Of a stretch of DNA of 64,000 nucleotides, positions 10,273 through 51,157 are shown in pieces (the stretch's first letter is position 1; each line of letters begins with the position of its first letter). Source of the DNA: Dictyostelium discoideum (Eukaryota); NCBI GenBank assembly GCA_000004695.1, contig CM000154.2:3936001-4000000 (forward strand), in the 5' to 3' direction. Position numbers and translations under genes: made by a program. The notes beneath the pieces are model-generated. The model saw nothing but the letters and a program-made list of their open reading frames with translations, searched no databases and had not been told where the DNA came from.

Positions 10273-10401
10273 TAGATAAAATAATAATAAATAAATTAAT
10301 TTAAACTTAAAATAAAAATAGTAATAAAATAATAAAAGTCGGTATTTATAGTTTTAATTTTTTTTTTTTTTTTATATTGTTTTAACTTTATGTGTATTTA
10401 T

Positions 10402-11228
<827 letters not shown>

Positions 11229-17110: not shown

Positions 17111-17116
<6 letters not shown>

Positions 17117-18207
17117 AAAAGATCTTTCAAATTTAATTGAACTACAATTAATTTTAACGATATCAGTTAAAAAAGAAAAGATAAAACTATGATAGATTTC
17201 TTTTGGAAGTAATGAAATATCTTTGAAAATCCAATGATGATTTGAATTATTATGGATATATTTAAATACTTGTAATGAACCATGAAGAGAAGCATAATAA
17301 AGTACCCATCTTGCTCTTTGAGGATCTTTAGTTGATAAAAAAGTTTCAATTGATTTTAAATCTGTTCTAAAACAAATTTCATTTATAATTGCGTGTTCAT
17401 TTGTAATTTCTGATAAATCTAATAAACCACTATCACCATCACCATTACCACCATCACCACTAATATTTTCATAATAGTTAAATAGAATTAGTTGATTTAA
17501 TCTACCTTCTTTTAAATAATATTTTAATTTTAATGGATCATTTATAATTCTTAAACATTTTTCTCTTTCATTCTTATCTAAATTATTAATATCCTTAATA
17601 TCATTATTAGTTGTTGTTGTTGTATCTGGATTATAATGATTTGAATGATAATTATTATAAGAATTAATATTTATTGAATGATCAATGTAATAGGTTATTA
17701 ATTTCTCTTTGAAATCAGTGATATTTTCAATTACGAAATCAATTGTATCATTATAAAAAATTGAATAACCAAGTTTAAATACTGATAATGATTTTTGATA
17801 TTCTAATGGATACATTGATTTAAAGTAACCCAACATTTCAATATTATTATTAAAAAAATTACTATAATTAATAATAATGAAATATTTTATACTAATAAGG
17901 TAATCTAGCATTTGAGGTGACTTTGGGGAAGAATCTTGAGGTGGGGTTAAATGAAATTTTTTAAAATTTTGAAATAATATATCCATCAATTCTTTATTTA
18001 CATCATAATTAATAAATTCATTCCAAATTGAATTTAATGTTAAACTAATTTGAAATGAATCTTCACTACCACCATCATTTAAAACTAGATTTCTATAATT
18101 ATTTAAAATATCATTTAAAACTTTAATTTTTTTATTTAAATTTATATTTGAATTTAAAAATATTAATGATCTTTCATCCATTGAAATTATAAATTTTGGA
18201 TATTGGA

Positions 18208-18250
<43 letters not shown>

Positions 18251-19504
18251 TTGTTTTTTTATCATAGCTAAATAATAAACATATATTAAAAAACTTCTTG
18301 AATTATTTAAAAATGGTAAAATCATTTTAAATAAATTTGAAATCATTTCTGTTGTTGTTGATTCCCAATTTATTTCAATTTGACCAATAAACTTACCTAA
18401 TAGTTCAAATTCTTCAAATTTCTTTTTATAATCTTGTAATTGATCAGTTGATAATGAAAAATAATCTTCAGTTAAAAATTCATTTGAAACTTTATCAGGT
18501 ATCATATAACCTGAAAATGGGATTTTATATTTTTCAATTAATTTTTTCTTATTATTTAATTGATTTTTTGAAAAGCCGAGATATGAAATTGAAAAACATG
18601 AATTTAATAAATCATTTAATTTCAAATCAGTAAACGAATGATTGAGTTTAAAATCAGTAACTGATTTTATTATTTTTGAACTTGGAGGTTGTAATTTTAA
18701 TTTATTAATTAAAAAATCAATTTTTGGATTAACTGAACAAGTTATAATTTTATTACTATTATTATTTTCATTTATTTCAATTGATACAGTATCAATATGA
18801 AATAATATTGATTTCCAAATTTTATCAATATTTGATTTATTAATTATAATTTGGTTTGATGATATTAAATAAAGTGATATATTAAATGATCCTTGATTAA
18901 TTGAATAGATGAAATCATCATCAGTTGGTTTATATAATCCATAATCTTCAACAATTATTGAATATGCAACATGATTATCATAATCAATCAATCTATCCAT
19001 AAATAGTTGTTTTTGATCTTTTGTTTGAATTTCTTTTTCTTTTTCTTTTTTATTATTGTTGTTGTTGTTGTTGTTGCTTGATAGTAAAATGAATTCACTA
19101 TCAATACATTCATATTTATTTAATAGTAATTCATTTATAAAATAATTATAATAATTCTTAAATAATGATCTATAGAATGATTTATCTGATTTTAAAGGTT
19201 CATCAACATTAAATATTGAATAAACAATAAGTTTTGAACTTTTAAAACATTGATAATAATAATGAAAGAATGATAATCCTTCTTCACCTTTTTCAATTTT
19301 TTCTTTTAATAAGGAGTAATATTTATATTTAATCATCCATTTAACACTTTTAATTTCATAATATCCATAATATCCAAATCTAAAGTGTACTCTTAAAAAT
19401 GATGTTATACGTTTAAATAAAAATATATTTTTAATTACTTTCCAAAATAATATTTCATTTTTTTCTTCATTATTTGATTTATTATTAATATTGTTTTGTA
19501 TCAT
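17111..19504 (-). CDS. Lineage-specific protein of unknown function, tandem paralogue A. Probable start at the MIQNNINN Met (19504). The poly-F extension of the ORF is a poly-A tract artefact.
   Basis: Long minus-strand ORF. It shares colinear motifs with the adjacent ORF 19755..22028: N-terminal EI(I/L)FWKVI(R/K)NI(Y/F)LFK, WKSI, ISNL(L/F)KMI(I/L)PF, CFR(T/R)DLK(S/A)I and a C-terminal HxWIF. Confidence 0.6.
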
Positions 19505-19544
19505 TTTTAAAAAGTAAATGAATAATCTGGTAAAATAAAAAAAA

Positions 19545-19575
<31 letters not shown>

Positions 19576-19754
19576 CCACTCACCAACTGATTAAATTTAT
19601 TTCAAAAAAAAAAAAAAAAAAAAAAAAATAAATTAAAAAAAAAAAAGATATTTCTTTGAAGATATTTTTTGTAAAAATTTTATTTGAAACTGAATCTTTT
19701 TTTAGATTATTATTTTTTTTATTTTTATTTTAACTTTTTTTTTTTTTATTTTTT

Positions 19755-32317: not shown

Positions 32318-32558
32318 AAAAAAAAAATTAAAAAATTAAAAAAAAAGAATTTAAAAAAAATTTTTAAATTAAATTTTTTTATTTTTTATTTTATTTTTTT
32401 GAAAAAAAAAAAAAAAAAAAAACATATGTGTACACCATTTTTTGATTATTAAAAAAAAAAAAATTACTATTTAGAGAAATAAAATAAATTAATAAATTTT
32501 TGAAATTTTTAATTTTTTATTTACAAATTATTATTTTTTTTTTTTTTTTTTTTTTTTT

Positions 32559-33464
32559 CTAATCAAAATTTGTTGAGGTTGTTAGAGTTTTAAAATTATT
32601 TAAATCTGATTGAATAGAGGTAACTTTTTTATTGAAAAAATCTATAGTTTCAGGACCCAAAAATAAATGAAGTGGAGGTGAAGTATTATTATCTAATGAG
32701 AGATCTATTAAAATGTTCATTGCTTTTTTAGGATCACCATTGAATGTCCAATTGGGTTTATCATTAACAGCCTCTCTGACATTTGAATAACAATCCAATG
32801 GATTATCAGAAGAGGTAGCAGATTCTTGAATACTAGTTTTAAAGAAACCAGGTTTCACACAAGTCACATGAACATTATGTGGCTTCATTTCCATATGCAA
32901 CGACTCGCTGATTGCCTCCATGGCGAATTTGGTCGACGAATAGGGCGAAGATCCCGCTGACAAATTCAAAATACCAGCAATTGAAGAGATGTTATAAACC
33001 CTGCACCCGCCATACTTGTTGGTCTTGGTGTACTCCCTTAGCAGTGGCAAAGCGTTACGCAACACATTTAACATGCCGAAGAAATTCGCGTCGAATATAT
33101 CACGATACTCCCTATCTGACAACTCCTCAACAGCGCCCAGTCTGAGGTAACCACTGTTATTAACGACTACATCCAATCTACTGAATTTCGATATTGTTTC
33201 AAGTAAACTTGATTTTACACTTCCTTCATCCACCAAATCAACTTGACAAATTAATAATTGTTTACCATGTTCTTCTTTTGATAGTCCTGTAACTTCACCT
33301 TGATTTAAATCTTTATTAAATATTTTCTTTTCTAAATTCTCTTTATTTCTAGTTGTTGCTGTGACTTTAAAACCTCTTTTAATTAATAATACTGTTAATA
33401 TAAATCCAAATCCTTTTGAACATCCTGTAATATACCATACAAAATTTTTATTAAATTCTTCCAT
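32559..33464 (-). CDS. Short-chain dehydrogenase/reductase (SDR family), single exon.
   Basis: TGCSKGFGF glycine-rich NAD(P)-binding motif, NNSG, and the catalytic YSSTK (YxxxK). 301 aa. The central third has anomalous GC-rich codons (see findings). Confidence 0.85.
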   Translation of the reverse strand: MEEFNKNFVWYITGCSKGFGFILTVLLIKRGFKVTATTRNKENLEKKIFNKDLNQGEVTGLSKEEHGKQLLICQVDLVDEGSVKSSLLETISKFSRLDVVVNNSGYLRLGAVEELSDREYRDIFDANFFGMLNVLRNALPLLREYTKTNKYGGCRVYNISSIAGILNLSAGSSPYSSTKFAMEAISESLHMEMKPHNVHVTCVKPGFFKTSIQESATSSDNPLDCYSNVREAVNDKPNWTFNGDPKKAMNILIDLSLDNNTSPPLHLFLGPETIDFFNKKVTSIQSDLNNFKTLTTSTNFD

Positions 33465-33915
33465 ATATTTTTTATTTTTTTATTTATTTATTTTTTTATT
33501 TTTTTATTTGTATATTTATTTATATGTGTAAAATTTTATGTATCTATTTTTTTTTTTTTTTTTATCTCCAGTGGTGGTATTGAATAATAAAATTAAATAA
33601 AATAAAATAAAAAATAAAAAAATAAAAAAAAATGATATTGAAAAAAAAAACTAAACCCAATGTCAAAGTTTTTTTTTTTTTTTTATTATTCCGAAAAATG
33701 AAGAAATTATTTTTTTTTATTCAGAAAGTTGAAGAAATTGTTTTATTATTCCGAAAGTTGGAGAAATTGTTTTTTTTTTTTGTAATTTGGTCTAAATTAA
33801 TGAAAAAAAAAAAAAATATCCTGGTGAAAAAAAAAAAAAAAAAATATCCTCTAAAAAATATCTTAAAAACAAAATTTTATAAAAAAAAAATAGTAAATTT
33901 TAAAAAATTAAATGT

Positions 33916-35698
33916 TTATTTCTTTTGTTTCTTTTTAGCTTTTTTATCTTCTTCAGATTCTTCCTCTGATTCATCTGAAGCAGAACCTTCATCAGACTCA
34001 GAACCAGACCTATAATTTTGGAGAGAAAAAAAATTAAATATGTTAGAAAGAGATTTTTTTTTTTTTTTTTTTTTTTATAAAAATATAAAGGCATACTCTG
34101 AAGGTTCATAATCATCATCATCAGAATCATCATCATCTATTATCATTGCAGGACCAGTAGTAACTGGATTTAAAATTGATAATTTCTTTTCTTTAAGGAA
34201 ATTGAAAAGACTTGGATATTCTTCACGTTGGATATTTACAAATTGAATGGAAGTTGAGTTCTTTAGATTGATAGATAAATCGAATGTACGATTACTACCA
34301 CCCCTAACGGATGGTGCACCATAACGAGCAAATTCAATGTTTGAGATATCTTCAAATTTAATATAGGTTGGTGGTTTATGAACAAAAAAGAAACATCTCT
34401 CCAATGGATATAAATAACCTTCATTGGCTTTCAATGAACATTTGATAGAGTTTGCACCTGAGTCCGATTGGAAATTACCAGGAATTGTGATTTTCTTGCC
34501 AGTCAATGCTTTAAGGATCTTACAAATGAGTGCATTGGCATTACCATTCATAATTGGTGAGAGTTGATCTTTGAATTTCTGTTGAAGTTCATCGGTTAGA
34601 TTTAATTCGAGATGAATGTTCTCCTCTGCTTGGAATTGAATGACTAAATGGGCGTATTTAGTTTGACCTTGACGAATGGGTGGGTCCAAGGAGATGATGA
34701 AAAAGATATGTTTTTGGTCTGGTCTAAAGAATTGAAAGAGACGTGAAATACTCTCATAGGGCACTTTATAGTCATGAGTTTTACCATGAAGTTTAAGGAA
34801 TGTTGGATACATTTCAATATCGATACGACCTCTTGGTGTAAGGAATTGAATGGCAGAGAATACAACCAAACTCTTACCAACATTCGATACCATATCTGAT
34901 TTATTCATAATGGTTTGTTGGAATTGCTCCAATGCACTAATCTCCTCCTCCTTTTCTGCATCCTCTTCATCCTCCTCATCCTCTTCGCCATCCTCGCCCA
35001 CCTTCTTTTCTTTACCACCTTCTTCACCCTCTTTCGATGGTCTAATTGGTGTGAAAAAACGCATCTCTACCATTGTTTCATCATCGTCATCCATTGCTTT
35101 ATCATGATGAAATTCCAATGTTAATTCATTTTTATTGTTTGCACCAATGACCGATTGTGATACTTCAGAGATTGGAAATTCAAATCCAACCTTACCATGA
35201 TCAGTGGTAAATTGAATCATTGGTCCATTGACTTTAACCTCACCCCAATTACAACCTTTACTTGATAATTCGATAATTTCCAATGGTGATACATTATATT
35301 GATCTGATAAATACTTTCTAACTACTTCATAATCTTGTTCTTTAAATCCATCAAATTTAACTGTTGCACCACCTTTAATCGATAATATTAATTGAAATAT
35401 TCTTGGTGTAACTCTAGCCCAATTTGCTCTCTTTATATCTGATGATGAAACTGTTTCAATTTTACCATTCTCCGATTTCCATGTTATATTATTTGTTGTA
35501 AATTTTAAAATACCTCTAGTCTAATAATAATAAAAATAAAAAAAATTAATATATTTATAATTTTTGAGAAAGTATTTAGAAAATTAATAATAAAAATTAA
35601 CTATATTATATATTTTTTTATGATGAAATTTACTCCACTAATTCTACCACCTAATGAAATATTATTAAATTGTGATACTGGATTTGAAGATGAGCTCA
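33916..35698 (-). CDS. FACT complex subunit SSRP1/Pob3-like, lacking an HMG box. Exon model: join(33916..34009,34097..35520,35633..35698), minus strand, ~527 aa.
   Basis: Colinear with SSRP1 as I recall it: KGCNWGEVKVNG, TLEFHHDKA...MVEMRFF, FLTPRGRIDIEMYPTFLKLHGKTHDYKVPY, GNFQSDSGANSIKCSLKANEGYLYPLERCFFFVHKPP. The 22-codon first exon MSSSSNPVSQFNNISLGGRISG ends in a GTAAAT donor. The 3' micro-exon encodes an acidic/basic tail ESGSESDEGSASDESEEESEEDKKAKKKQKK, reached through a GTATGC donor at 34096. Confidence 0.8.
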
Positions 35699-37177: not shown

Positions 37178-39140
37178 ATGAGAGTTTTGTTACTTTTAGT
37201 TTTCCTCGTATTTTGTATCATTCCAGCAGCTCTCTCATTCAGAGACACCAACTGGAGCAAATACAACAGAGCTGGTAAAAAAGAAACTGTAGATTTCCGT
37301 ATTGCACTCAATCAAAGAAATTTAGATGTCTTAGAAAATACTTTATTGGATGTTTCTAACCCAGAATCACCAAATTATGGTATGTGTCAAAATAAAAAAA
37401 ATAAAAATAAAAAAATAAAAAAATAAAATTTTTTTTTTTAAGATTTAAAACTAATAAATATTTTTTTTTATTTTTATTTATTTAATTAAATTTAAATAAA
37501 ATCAAAACCAAAAAAAAAAAAAAAAAAAAAAAAAAAATTCTATAGGTAAACATTGGACTTCTGAACAAGTTGCTGATTTAGTTGCACCAGAACCATACGT
37601 TTCAAAGAAAGTTGCAAATTATTTAAAAAAGAATGGTTGTCACAATGTTGAAAATCATCGTGATTACATTAAAGCAACTGGTCCAGTTGATTCAGTTGAA
37701 AAGATTTTCTCAGTTGAAATGTACAATTACAAACATAATATTAAATCCGATCAAGCTATCATTCGTTCATCAGAAACCTATCAAGTTCCATTTGAAATCT
37801 CTCAATATGTTCACATTGTTTCTGGTATCTCTGAACTCCCACATCTCAAGAGTGGTCCAAAATCACAAAGATTAAGACCAAATCCAAAGGATTTCCAAGC
37901 TACTCCAGCCCCAGCTGGTCCAGCTGATCCAGGTATGGTCGTTCCACAAACCATCCAACAACTCTATGGTATTCCATCAAACTACCAAAACAACCAAAAC
38001 ACTTCACTCTGTTTAGCTGAATTTGCTGCAGATCGTTCATACCAACCAAAGGATCTCAAGACCTTTGCCGCCAAGACTGGTACTCCATTAATCAATGTTG
38101 TTAAGAATGTCGGTCCATTCCAACCAACTCAACCAGATCTTGAATCAACCCTCGACGTTCAATATGGTGGTGCCACTGCACAAACTGCCGATGTTTGGTT
38201 CTGGACTGTCAACGGTTGGATGTACGAGTTCTCATCAGATCTCGCCGCCACTGTCCCAGCTCCATACGTTGTCTCAATGTCATGGGGTTGGCCAGAACCA
38301 TTACAATGTCAACAAGGTATTGGTAACTGTACCGATGGTGAATCATCACAAGACTACGTCAACCGTGTTAACATTGAATTCCAAAAGATTGGTCTCCGTG
38401 GTATCACCCTTTTAGCTTCTTCAGGTGATCAAGGTGCCCCAGGTGATGGTAATCCATCATGTACCTCAAGAGATCAACCAATCTCAACCATTTTCCCAGG
38501 TGCCTCCCCATGGGTTACCTCTGTTGGTGCTACCATGTTAGCTGCCCCATCCACCAGCAATCCAAATCCAATCGATACTTCTGATGCCCCAGTCTGTGGT
38601 ATCCACGCTTGTGCTACCTCAACTCAAGAAGTTACCTGTTCATCTCCATCCGCTTTGATCACTACTGGTGGTGGTTTCTCCAACTACTCCCCACAACCAG
38701 CATGGCAATCAAAAGCTGTCAATGCTTACCTCAACTCTGGTGTTGTCTTACCAAACAAAAAATTCTTTAACGCTTCAAACCGTGGTTTCCCAGATGTCTC
38801 TGGTTTAGGTCACAACTACTACATTGTTGCCGCCGATCAAATGAACTTAGTCGATGGTACCTCTTGTTCATCACCAGTCATTGGTGGTATTGTTGCCTTA
38901 TTAAACAGCTATCGTTTAGATAATGGTAAATCAACCCTCGGTTTCATTAACCCAGTCTTATATGCTGCTTACGCCTCTAACCCAGCTGCCTTCAATGATA
39001 TCACCGTTGGTAACAATTATTGTACTGAAAGCTGTTGTGCTACCACTGGTTTCGTTGCCACCAAAGGTTGGGATGCTGTCACTGGTTTAGGTTCACCAAA
39101 TTTCAAACCATTATTATCATACATTCAATCTTTAAATTAA
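37178..39140 (+). CDS. Sedolisin / tripeptidyl-peptidase I-like serine protease (peptidase S53) precursor. Exon model: join(37178..37379,37546..39140), ~598 aa.
   Basis: Signal peptide MRVLLLLVFLVFCIIPAALS. Prodomain motif WTSEQVADLVAP. Catalytic motifs SGDQGA and GTSCSSP. GTATGT donor at 37380 and TATAG acceptor at 37545, joining in phase 1. Confidence 0.85.
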
Positions 39141-51061: not shown

Positions 51062-51157
51062 TGGAGAAGAAGGGTATCGATCCCTTTACCTTATGGAAAT
51101 CTGATTATCGTTGCTGTTTATGCAAACCATACGCTCTACCATATGAGCTACATCCCC
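51062..51157 (-). tRNA. tRNA-Ala (anticodon UGC) with a 23-nt intron at 51098..51120.
   Basis: Manual cloverleaf on the minus strand. Acceptor GGGGATG/CTTCTCC with a G3:U70 wobble, which is the alanine identity pair, and one U6:U67 mismatch. D-arm GCTC-ATATGGTA-GAGC. Anticodon stem TATGG/CCATA with loop TTTGCAT. Intron between positions 37 and 38. T-arm AAGGG-ATCGATA-CCCTT. Discriminator A. Mature length 73 nt. Confidence 0.6.

Follow-up and report, generated by a model that had tools for sequence, protein, structure and literature searches.

Why should the middle third of an otherwise ordinary, AT-rich gene of Dictyostelium discoideum be written in GC-rich codons that are rare around it? The gene encodes a short-chain dehydrogenase/reductase (SDR) and lies on the minus strand of the 64,000-nucleotide stretch of DNA analysed here, which we call the window. 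An initial annotation made from the letters of the window noted the uneven codon usage and proposed a recent gene conversion, a chimeric horizontally acquired segment or an assembly chimera as its source. Here, we describe the composition of the gene, follow it through related species, and weigh the processes that could have produced it.

A GC-rich core inside an ordinary SDR gene

The gene and its parts are as follows.

32559 to 33464, minus strand: SDR gene, an intron-less ORF of 301 amino acids for a classical short-chain dehydrogenase/reductase
33192 to 33464, minus strand: N-terminal third of the ORF, the nucleotide-binding part of the Rossmann fold, with the usual AT-rich codons
32883 to 33191, minus strand: GC3-rich tract and W>S (A:T-to-G:C) substitution cluster, codons 92-194, from just upstream of NNSG to past YSSTK, covering the catalytic core
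32559 to 32882, minus strand: C-terminal third of the ORF, with the usual AT-rich codons

The translation is identical to D. discoideum AX4 protein XP_635804 (UniProt Q54G79) at 301 of 301 residues and matches the Pfam family adh_short (PF00106) with an E value of 2.6e-37. This identity, together with the exact match of a 6.4-kb block from another part of the window to assembly GCA_054883475.1, marks the DNA as D. discoideum of the AX4/AX2 laboratory type. We read the motifs ITGCSKGFG (TGxxxGxG-type), NNSG, NISS and YSSTK in it. By its sequence, the protein is a classical SDR, as it combines the adh_short domain with the Gly-rich, NNAG-type and catalytic Ser...YxxxK motifs. The best solved structural relative is 3m1a, a “putative dehydrogenase,” with an E value of 7e-34. 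A search of NCBIfam with the protein returned zero models at the cut-off, and the gene was absent, by UniProt accession, from the literature searched. SSRP1, a subunit of FACT, lies directly upstream of the SDR gene in all of the Dictyostelium loci that we fetched, and TFIIA lies downstream in the three wild discoideum-clade loci with a recorded domain match. The order SSRP1 - SDR - TFIIA is kept wherever TFIIA was identified among the fetched orthologous loci. Furthermore, the gene has no introns in any Dictyostelium orthologue examined, including the AT-rich ones. In short, this is an ordinary, vertically inherited classical SDR gene.

The mosaic composition of the ORF is real. A maximum-likelihood fit with two breakpoints placed the tract at 32883-33191, close to the 32880-33200 of the initial annotation, with a GC3 of 0.58 within codons 92-194 versus 0.12 in the rest of the gene. 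The latter value bears out the claim that the 5' and 3' thirds are AT-rich. The tract is ~310 bp long with a DNA GC content of 0.45, and the remaining details of the original description (a core of ~105 codons at 45-50% GC, with NNSG and YSSTK inside it, in an intron-less ORF) were all confirmed. A sliding GC3 profile, one of the checks that had been suggested, is not uniform. Windows of 15 codons have a GC3 of 0.00-0.13 over codons 1-90, mostly 0.47-0.87 over codons 96-195, with a dip to 0.33-0.40 around codons 151-175, and mostly 0.07-0.27 over codons 200-301, with a peak of 0.33. Taken as whole segments, codons 1-95 have a GC3 of 0.09 and codons 196-301 a GC3 of 0.16. The GC content of codon positions 1 and 2 is flat, at ~0.3-0.5 along the whole gene. 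Out of 20,000 within-gene permutations of synonymous codons, none matched the observed 45-codon GC3 maximum of 0.64; the highest value reached by permutation was 0.58.

The tract also stands out from its surroundings. The window as a whole is 21.5% GC, and its 150-bp windows have a median GC of 0.21 and a 99th percentile of 0.45; over 32794-33209, GC reaches 0.50. Among the in-frame coding ORFs of the window, the SDR patch has the highest GC3, and the next highest values are 0.49. Other GC spikes in the window are of an ordinary kind, being the uL14 exons with their codons of the expression type, a peptidase that owes its GC to codon positions 1 and 2, and a tRNA.

We counted a codon as rare if it made up less than 10% of its amino-acid family in 10,505 background codons of this window. 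By this measure, 28 of 109 core codons are rare, versus 4 of 90 in the N-terminal and 8 of 102 in the C-terminal part. The rare codons of the core include TCG (five times), AAC (four), GGC and AGG (three each), CTG and GCG (two each), and single instances of GGG, CCC and others. CTG, GGC, GCG, TCG, AGG and CCC had all been listed as rare at the outset, and the list holds for these six; CGT, also listed, occurs in the core yet is not rare in the background.

Timing and direction of the change

We fetched the locus from two wild D. discoideum assemblies, FIR (L010) and FIW (L001), from two assemblies named “D. cf. discoideum,” FIY (L008) and FIZ (L002), and from D. citrinum, D. dimigraforme, D. 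firmibasis, D. purpureum and Cavenderia fasciculata. Orthologues and paralogues were collected by protein search, and more strains were added by cluster look-up. Judged by their species names, the clade assemblies appear to be those of a recent preprint (10.1101/2025.08.01.668227), in which two tropical isolates are treated as probable cryptic sister species of D. discoideum.

The rise in core GC3 is graded and limited to the discoideum clade. Outside this clade, core GC3 stays between 0.16 (D. firmibasis) and 0.25 (D. dimigraforme), with D. citrinum at 0.20 and D. purpureum at 0.24; within it, the values are 0.29 in FIZ, 0.47 in FIY, 0.55 in AX4 and 0.57 in FIW. The flanks of the SDR gene have a GC3 of 0.08-0.20 in all orthologues compared. 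Between AX4 and FIZ, third positions of the core have diverged by 38%, versus 8.8% in the SDR flanks and 8.7% in SSRP1. The pattern is not a property of the family, as GC3 stays flat at 0.11 along Q54FW2, the paralogue in AX4.

Next, we polarised the changes. Parsimony on a tree of nine taxa assigned 10, 21, 11 and 3 W>S changes in the core to the four branches that lead in succession to AX4, versus 1, 1, 1 and 0 changes in the opposite direction (S>W), and the FIR/FIW and FIY branches carry W>S changes of their own. Between the FIZ split and AX4, 35 W>S versus 2 S>W changes accrued in the core, where the per-codon background rate predicts 5.6 W>S changes (Poisson P = 8e-17). The derived sites are interspersed along the tract and do not form blocks. 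As the W>S changes are spread in this way over at least four successive branches, the tract was built up by more than one event.

We also applied a strict polarisation, using third positions only and accepting an ancestral state where two or more of the three outgroups backed it. Along the lineage to AX4, G/C replaced A/T at 28 of the 67 third positions of the core that were ancestrally A/T (~40%), and 0 of 15 ancestral G/C third positions changed to A/T, a sample that lacks the power to show suppression of S>W change. The W>S rate per A/T site on this lineage is 0.418 in the core, versus 0.037 in the SDR flanks and 0.040 in SSRP1, a difference of ~11-fold (Fisher P = 9e-17) against controls that lie within roughly 3 kb on each side of the SDR gene. 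In the core, the FIZ lineage is ordinary (3 W>S versus 2 S>W changes). With both flanks pooled, 6 of 160 A/T sites underwent a W>S change on the AX4 lineage and 6 of 160 on the FIZ lineage. A Tajima relative-rate test gave 30 changes in AX4 versus 5 in FIZ for the core (P = 2.4e-5), and 9 versus 8 for the flanks.

The spectrum of the core changes (16 A>G, 19 T>C, 3 A>C and 4 T>G) is strand-symmetric, and no excess of W<->W or S<->S changes accompanies the W>S excess. Most of the derived sites (42 of 51) lie in codons without an amino-acid change, and the other 9 lie in changed codons. The few non-synonymous W>S changes in the core, such as K119R and, in FIY, Y146H and K148H, are small in number, and they come from a tract that has no non-coding sequence. 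Six of 24 informative sites among four haplotypes are phylogenetically incompatible. The core shows a lineage-local excess of substitutions, a strong bias of W>S over S>W, and strand symmetry, three of the traits expected of a gBGC (GC-biased gene conversion) tract or W>S substitution cluster.

A weaker skew is present in the neighbouring gene, in the following segment.

34500 to 35100, minus strand: middle of the large SSRP1 exon, with a weaker W>S skew in the same lineages as the SDR core

Among alleles derived within AX4, FIR, FIW and FIY, 34500-35099 carries 29 W>S versus 1 S>W change; FIZ-specific changes in the same segment number 2 W>S versus 6 S>W. Across the whole SSRP1 exon, the four GC-rich assemblies carry 44 W>S versus 6 S>W changes. 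Under strict polarisation, however, the whole exon has only 13 versus 2 changes on the AX4 lineage, and its W>S rate per site of 0.040 is not raised. Some of 34500-35100 consists of an acidic run of low complexity, and this run has a high GC3 in D. citrinum, D. dimigraforme and D. firmibasis too. The skew in the middle of the SSRP1 exon and the SDR tract may share one regional process. No W>S burst was seen in the adjacent N-terminal SDR codons or in the SDR-SSRP1 intergenic region. An apparent loss of the last SSRP1 intron in one “D. cf. discoideum” assembly proved to be wrong, as the intron is present and is stop-free in frame.

Proposed GC-biased gene conversion at the core

The best explanation for the GC-rich core is a W>S fixation bias that was confined to ~310 bp and to one lineage, was sustained over time and resembles GC-biased gene conversion (gBGC); the core would be its footprint. 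The most likely mechanism is gBGC itself, to which we give roughly even odds (a probability of about 0.5), and we infer that recombination or mismatch repair is the cause. With respect to the recent gene conversion proposed at the outset, the ectopic form falls away, as neither the protein search nor the 64-kb window yielded a GC-rich paralogue as donor, and an allelic, GC-biased form that acts repeatedly is plausible.

The bias was active in the D. discoideum lineage after its split from the closest cryptic sister lineage. Under gBGC, recombination at the tract would repeatedly give rise to heteroduplex DNA between alleles, and mismatch repair would favour G/C in this heteroduplex. New W>S variants would then fix far above expectation, and S>W variants would hardly ever do so. 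Most amino-acid changes in the catalytic core would be purged by purifying selection, and what is left would be a run of rare synonymous codons that end in G or C. This run of rare codons probably serves no function and is a neutral or slightly deleterious by-product.

Several features of the tract bear on this mechanism. The strand-symmetric spectrum fits a bias in double-strand repair and speaks against editing or a transcription-coupled process. The incompatible sites among haplotypes are expected where alleles recombine within the SDR gene, and they lend gBGC slight support. The milder W>S skew of SSRP1 in the same lineages is another slight point in its favour, much reduced under strict polarisation. 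A length of ~310 bp is within the usual range of conversion tracts. On the other side, gBGC predicts that non-coding sites are affected equally, and the tract lies entirely in coding sequence. Additionally, a simple model of a promoter-centred hotspot fits poorly, given that the adjacent N-terminal codons and the intergenic region lack the burst.

Phenomena of this kind are already known from other eukaryotes. Both gBGC tracts and W>S “biased clustered substitutions” have been described in mammals, birds and yeast, including human accelerated regions and phastBias-type tracts. Like these, the SDR tract is hundreds of bases long, is accelerated in one lineage, consists of nearly all W>S changes, is strand-symmetric and leaves the GC content of the flanks unaffected. 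In gBGC tracts, protein function is ignored save where purifying selection removes changes, and the SDR tract, which is wholly coding, may behave alike. Unlike gBGC tracts elsewhere, the SDR tract sits in the middle of a coding exon and not at a promoter or known hotspot, and it appears to have been active through several speciation-level splits. Its host also sets it apart, as D. discoideum is a 22% GC species that has been used as a gBGC-free model (PMC8321536).

A genome-wide study of D. discoideum points the other way. It found no evidence of gBGC, which counts against it here; GC content did not correlate with recombination, intron GC did not correlate with exon GC, and the allele-frequency spectrum of W>S variants in introns was not shifted (PMC8321536). 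Two observations hint indirectly at gene conversion. In D. discoideum, GC content falls as chromosome size rises (Pessia et al.; PMC5635611), and exons flanking lost introns have raised GC (PMC4683709). In the latter study, the raised exonic GC around lost Dictyostelium introns was attributed to gene conversion with cDNA. The SDR tract resembles those exons in that it comes from the same genus and shows a local exonic GC enrichment that is read as a footprint of gene conversion. However, the SDR tract has no coincident intron loss, the effect is much stronger, and it dates to the discoideum clade. Intron loss by cDNA conversion was rejected as its source, since the timing does not fit; the Dictyostelium orthologues examined are all already intron-less.

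There is a nearly even chance that D. discoideum, while treated as gBGC-free, holds very narrow, strong and persistent W>S hotspots, produced either by gBGC at fixed recombination sites or by an undescribed targeted A:T-to-G:C process. If so, a hotspot of this kind is able to rewrite one third of the silent sites in a gene over the time that cryptic sister species take to diverge, and the SDR core would be the first documented example. The new clade genomes would permit a genome-wide census of W>S hotspots. If the tract is a gBGC hotspot, it would point to a fine-scale, recombination-linked repair bias in Dictyostelium that leaves no genome-wide signature, and it would bear on the use of D. 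discoideum as a “gBGC-free” null model for selection on codon usage. It would also be a candidate recombination hotspot in a species for which the map of meiosis is still poor.

Alternative explanations of the tract

Selection may instead have acted on the composition of the core, in nucleotides or in codons, and favoured G/C-ending and hence rare codons in D. discoideum; this is an unlikely alternative with some points in its favour. Possible benefits would be slower translation for co-translational folding of the Rossmann core, mRNA stability, or the loss of AT-rich cryptic signals. Within the protein, the tract falls on the catalytic part, which is the most conserved, and its silent sites shift one way while the amino acids stay. 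Since the rare codons of this genome are the G/C-ending ones, selection for rare codons would look the same as a W>S bias, and rare codons make up 28 of the 109 in the core. Synonymous-site selection in D. discoideum has also been tied to translation and mRNA stability (PMC8321536). However, the rare-codon block is missing in D. purpureum, D. firmibasis, D. citrinum, D. dimigraforme and one “D. cf. discoideum” assembly, although these orthologues encode an almost identical core protein, and the paralogue lacks it as well. The mRNA is not unusually structured (z = +2.0). The codons gained are unlike those of a highly expressed gene, as uL14 in the window uses no TCG, CTG, GCG, GGC or GGG. Finally, the milder W>S skew in SSRP1, an unrelated neighbour, points to a regional process that is independent of the gene.

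Two narrower forms of codon selection were considered and rejected. Expression-linked codon bias is known in D. discoideum (Sharp & Devine 1989, as cited in PMC8321536), and it likewise raises GC3 in some genes; uL14 in the window has a GC3 of 0.36. This bias affects whole genes and involves mainly C-ending codons and AAG. The SDR core, in contrast, has G-ending rare codons (TCG, CTG, GCG, GGG, AGG, TTG and GAG) confined to one third of the gene. The tract is not translationally optimal codon usage, given that the bias spans only a third of the ORF and that the core uses the five codons absent from uL14; moreover, the preferred codons of D. discoideum are not GC-rich (PMC8321536). The second form is a conserved rare-codon cluster. 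The SDR block resembles clusters proposed to pace co-translational folding in being a contiguous run of rare codons inside a folded domain. However, such clusters are defined by positional conservation across orthologues, and the SDR block is absent from close orthologues; its positions are not kept, and core GC3 is 0.16-0.29 in five orthologues with nearly the same protein.

A local W>S mutational process would bias the input of variants and not their fixation, for example through recurrent damage or breakage that is repaired by an error-prone polymerase favouring A:T-to-G:C changes. We consider this improbable as well, though a W>S rate raised ~11-fold without a demonstrable drop in S>W change is in its favour. 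Short lineage-specific runs of A>G lie just outside the core, where FIZ has four such changes in 30 bp and FIW three in 16 bp, and a preprint reports regions of Dictyostelium DNA that are locally hypermutable in a structural sense (10.1101/2025.08.01.668227). However, a raw burst of mutation would strike all codon positions, which is not what the 42 of 51 derived sites in codons without amino-acid change show; even a mutational origin would need site-by-site filtering over time. The mutation spectrum of D. discoideum is strongly biased from GC to AT (PMC8321536), and W<->W and S<->S changes, as noted above, are not in excess. If either selection or a local mutator is the cause, the locus is a clean natural case in which a catalytic core was recoded at silent sites rapidly and in one direction, and it lies in a model organism that lends itself to experiment.

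The tract is not foreign DNA. A core pasted in once from a GC-richer bacterial SDR, another eukaryote, a paralogue or a retrocopy would explain the sharp-looking composition boundaries, and this SDR subfamily has many bacterial relatives at ~40% identity, yet we regard such an origin as very improbable. The core is the part of the SDR protein most similar to its AT-rich orthologues, at 94% identity to D. firmibasis, 78% to D. purpureum and 76% to Cavenderia. Its identity is only 41-55% when compared with bacterial proteins and 49-50% when compared with the dictyostelid paralogues tested; the horizontally acquired segment proposed initially is contradicted by these values. A single insertion is also at odds with derived sites that are interspersed over several branches, with the intermediate GC3 of the two “D. 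cf. discoideum” assemblies, and with changes that are almost purely W>S and not a random mixture. A blastn search in “distant” mode found no DNA match in 72,556 plasmid records. Ectopic conversion was rejected for want of a donor, as the nearest paralogues are 41-46% identical and Q54FW2, the AX4 paralogue, lacks any GC3 peak; there is no second copy within the 64-kb window, and the protein search found no close paralogue. On any reading, an abrupt shift in codon usage within a gene need not mean horizontal transfer or misassembly.

Nor is the tract an embedded RNA. We find it very doubtful that a structured non-coding RNA or an antisense gene lies over the core and needs its G/C. An antisense stop-free frame of 77 codons does overlap the core (32912-33145), but a frame of this length arises by chance (P = 0.61, synonymous permutation), and the AT-rich orthologues have antisense stop-free runs of 53-74 codons. 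Rfam gave no match to the SDR region in a search of the whole window at gathering thresholds or in a search of 32500-33500 at E <= 1. The core has no excess folding energy in the sense orientation or the antisense orientation (z = +0.6 for the latter), and no notable repeats were found.

An assembly chimera or contamination of the reference, for which only the odd composition speaks, has a negligible probability: an independent assembly, GCA_054883475.1, and three contigs that Logan assembled from reads have the same CDS with 0 differences, and three more wild-isolate assemblies carry the GC-rich core with private variants of their own and conserved synteny.

Substitutions and the last intron of SSRP1

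We compared derived alleles in SSRP1 (FACT subunit), the gene adjoining the short-chain dehydrogenase (SDR) gene, among the four GC-rich discoideum-clade assemblies (AX4, the wild D. discoideum FIR and FIW, and the 'D. cf. discoideum' FIY). Two SSRP1 features are considered here:

34500-35100, minus strand: W>S-skewed stretch of the large exon (W>S, A/T-to-G/C change; S>W, the reverse)
~33950-34060, minus strand: last intron, compared across strains and species (~2050-2100 in sequence L004)

Of the derived alleles of these four assemblies in the large exon stretch, 29 are W>S and 1 is S>W. This second skew is weaker than that of the GC3-rich core of the SDR gene and is seen in the same assemblies. 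The counts for FIZ, the other 'D. cf. discoideum' assembly, are 2 W>S and 6 S>W. Part of it is an acidic low-complexity run, and this run is rich in GC at third codon positions (GC3) in D. citrinum, D. dimigraforme, and D. firmibasis too. Once polarisation was strict, no elevation of the per-site W>S rate was observed in SSRP1.

Every discoideum-clade strain has the last intron, as does D. firmibasis, and D. purpureum lacks it. The FIZ copy is stop-free in frame by chance and so looks like an intron loss when ORFs are compared.

Private changes and read-assembled contigs of the SDR gene

Just upstream of the SDR core, small lineage-private A>G runs were observed:

33243-33304, minus strand: lineage-private A>G runs, SDR codons ~55-75

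One run is private to FIZ (four changes in 30 bp) and another to FIW (three changes in 16 bp); such runs may represent short clusters arising by conversion or by mutation. Three Logan read-assembled contigs (SRR26869266-8) of ~950 bp carry exactly the SDR CDS, with 31 nt upstream and an A run downstream. These may be transcript assemblies, or contigs merely ending at homopolymers.

Other GC-rich spots

~10395-11200, minus strand: ribosomal protein uL14 (RPL23) gene, four small exons
37719-39140, plus strand: subtilase/sedolisin-like peptidase ORF (Pfam PF00082)

Exons of uL14 account for the GC spikes at 10378-10600 and 10834-11012. With a GC3 of 0.36, this gene shows expression-linked codon usage of the C-ending type; TCG, CTG, GCG, GGC, and GGG are absent from its codons. 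The peptidase ORF, which weakly matches the pro-kumamolisin activation domain, forms the window's most GC-rich kilobase (0.45-0.53). Its GC content is 0.47 at codon positions 1 and 2 versus 0.29 at position 3 and therefore, unlike that of the SDR core, reflects amino-acid composition.

A tRNA gene and a pair of ORFs

51062-51157, minus strand: tRNA gene, 96 nt (Rfam, 49 bits)
17111-19579, minus strand: large ORF, 822 aa
19755-22028, minus strand: neighbouring paralogous ORF, 757 aa

The tRNA gene, which ARAGORN did not call, probably holds an intron, given its length. A Pfam scan of the 757-aa ORF, the member of the pair that was scanned, returned no family. The two ORFs have similar N-termini and look like a tandem duplication of an uncharacterised gene.
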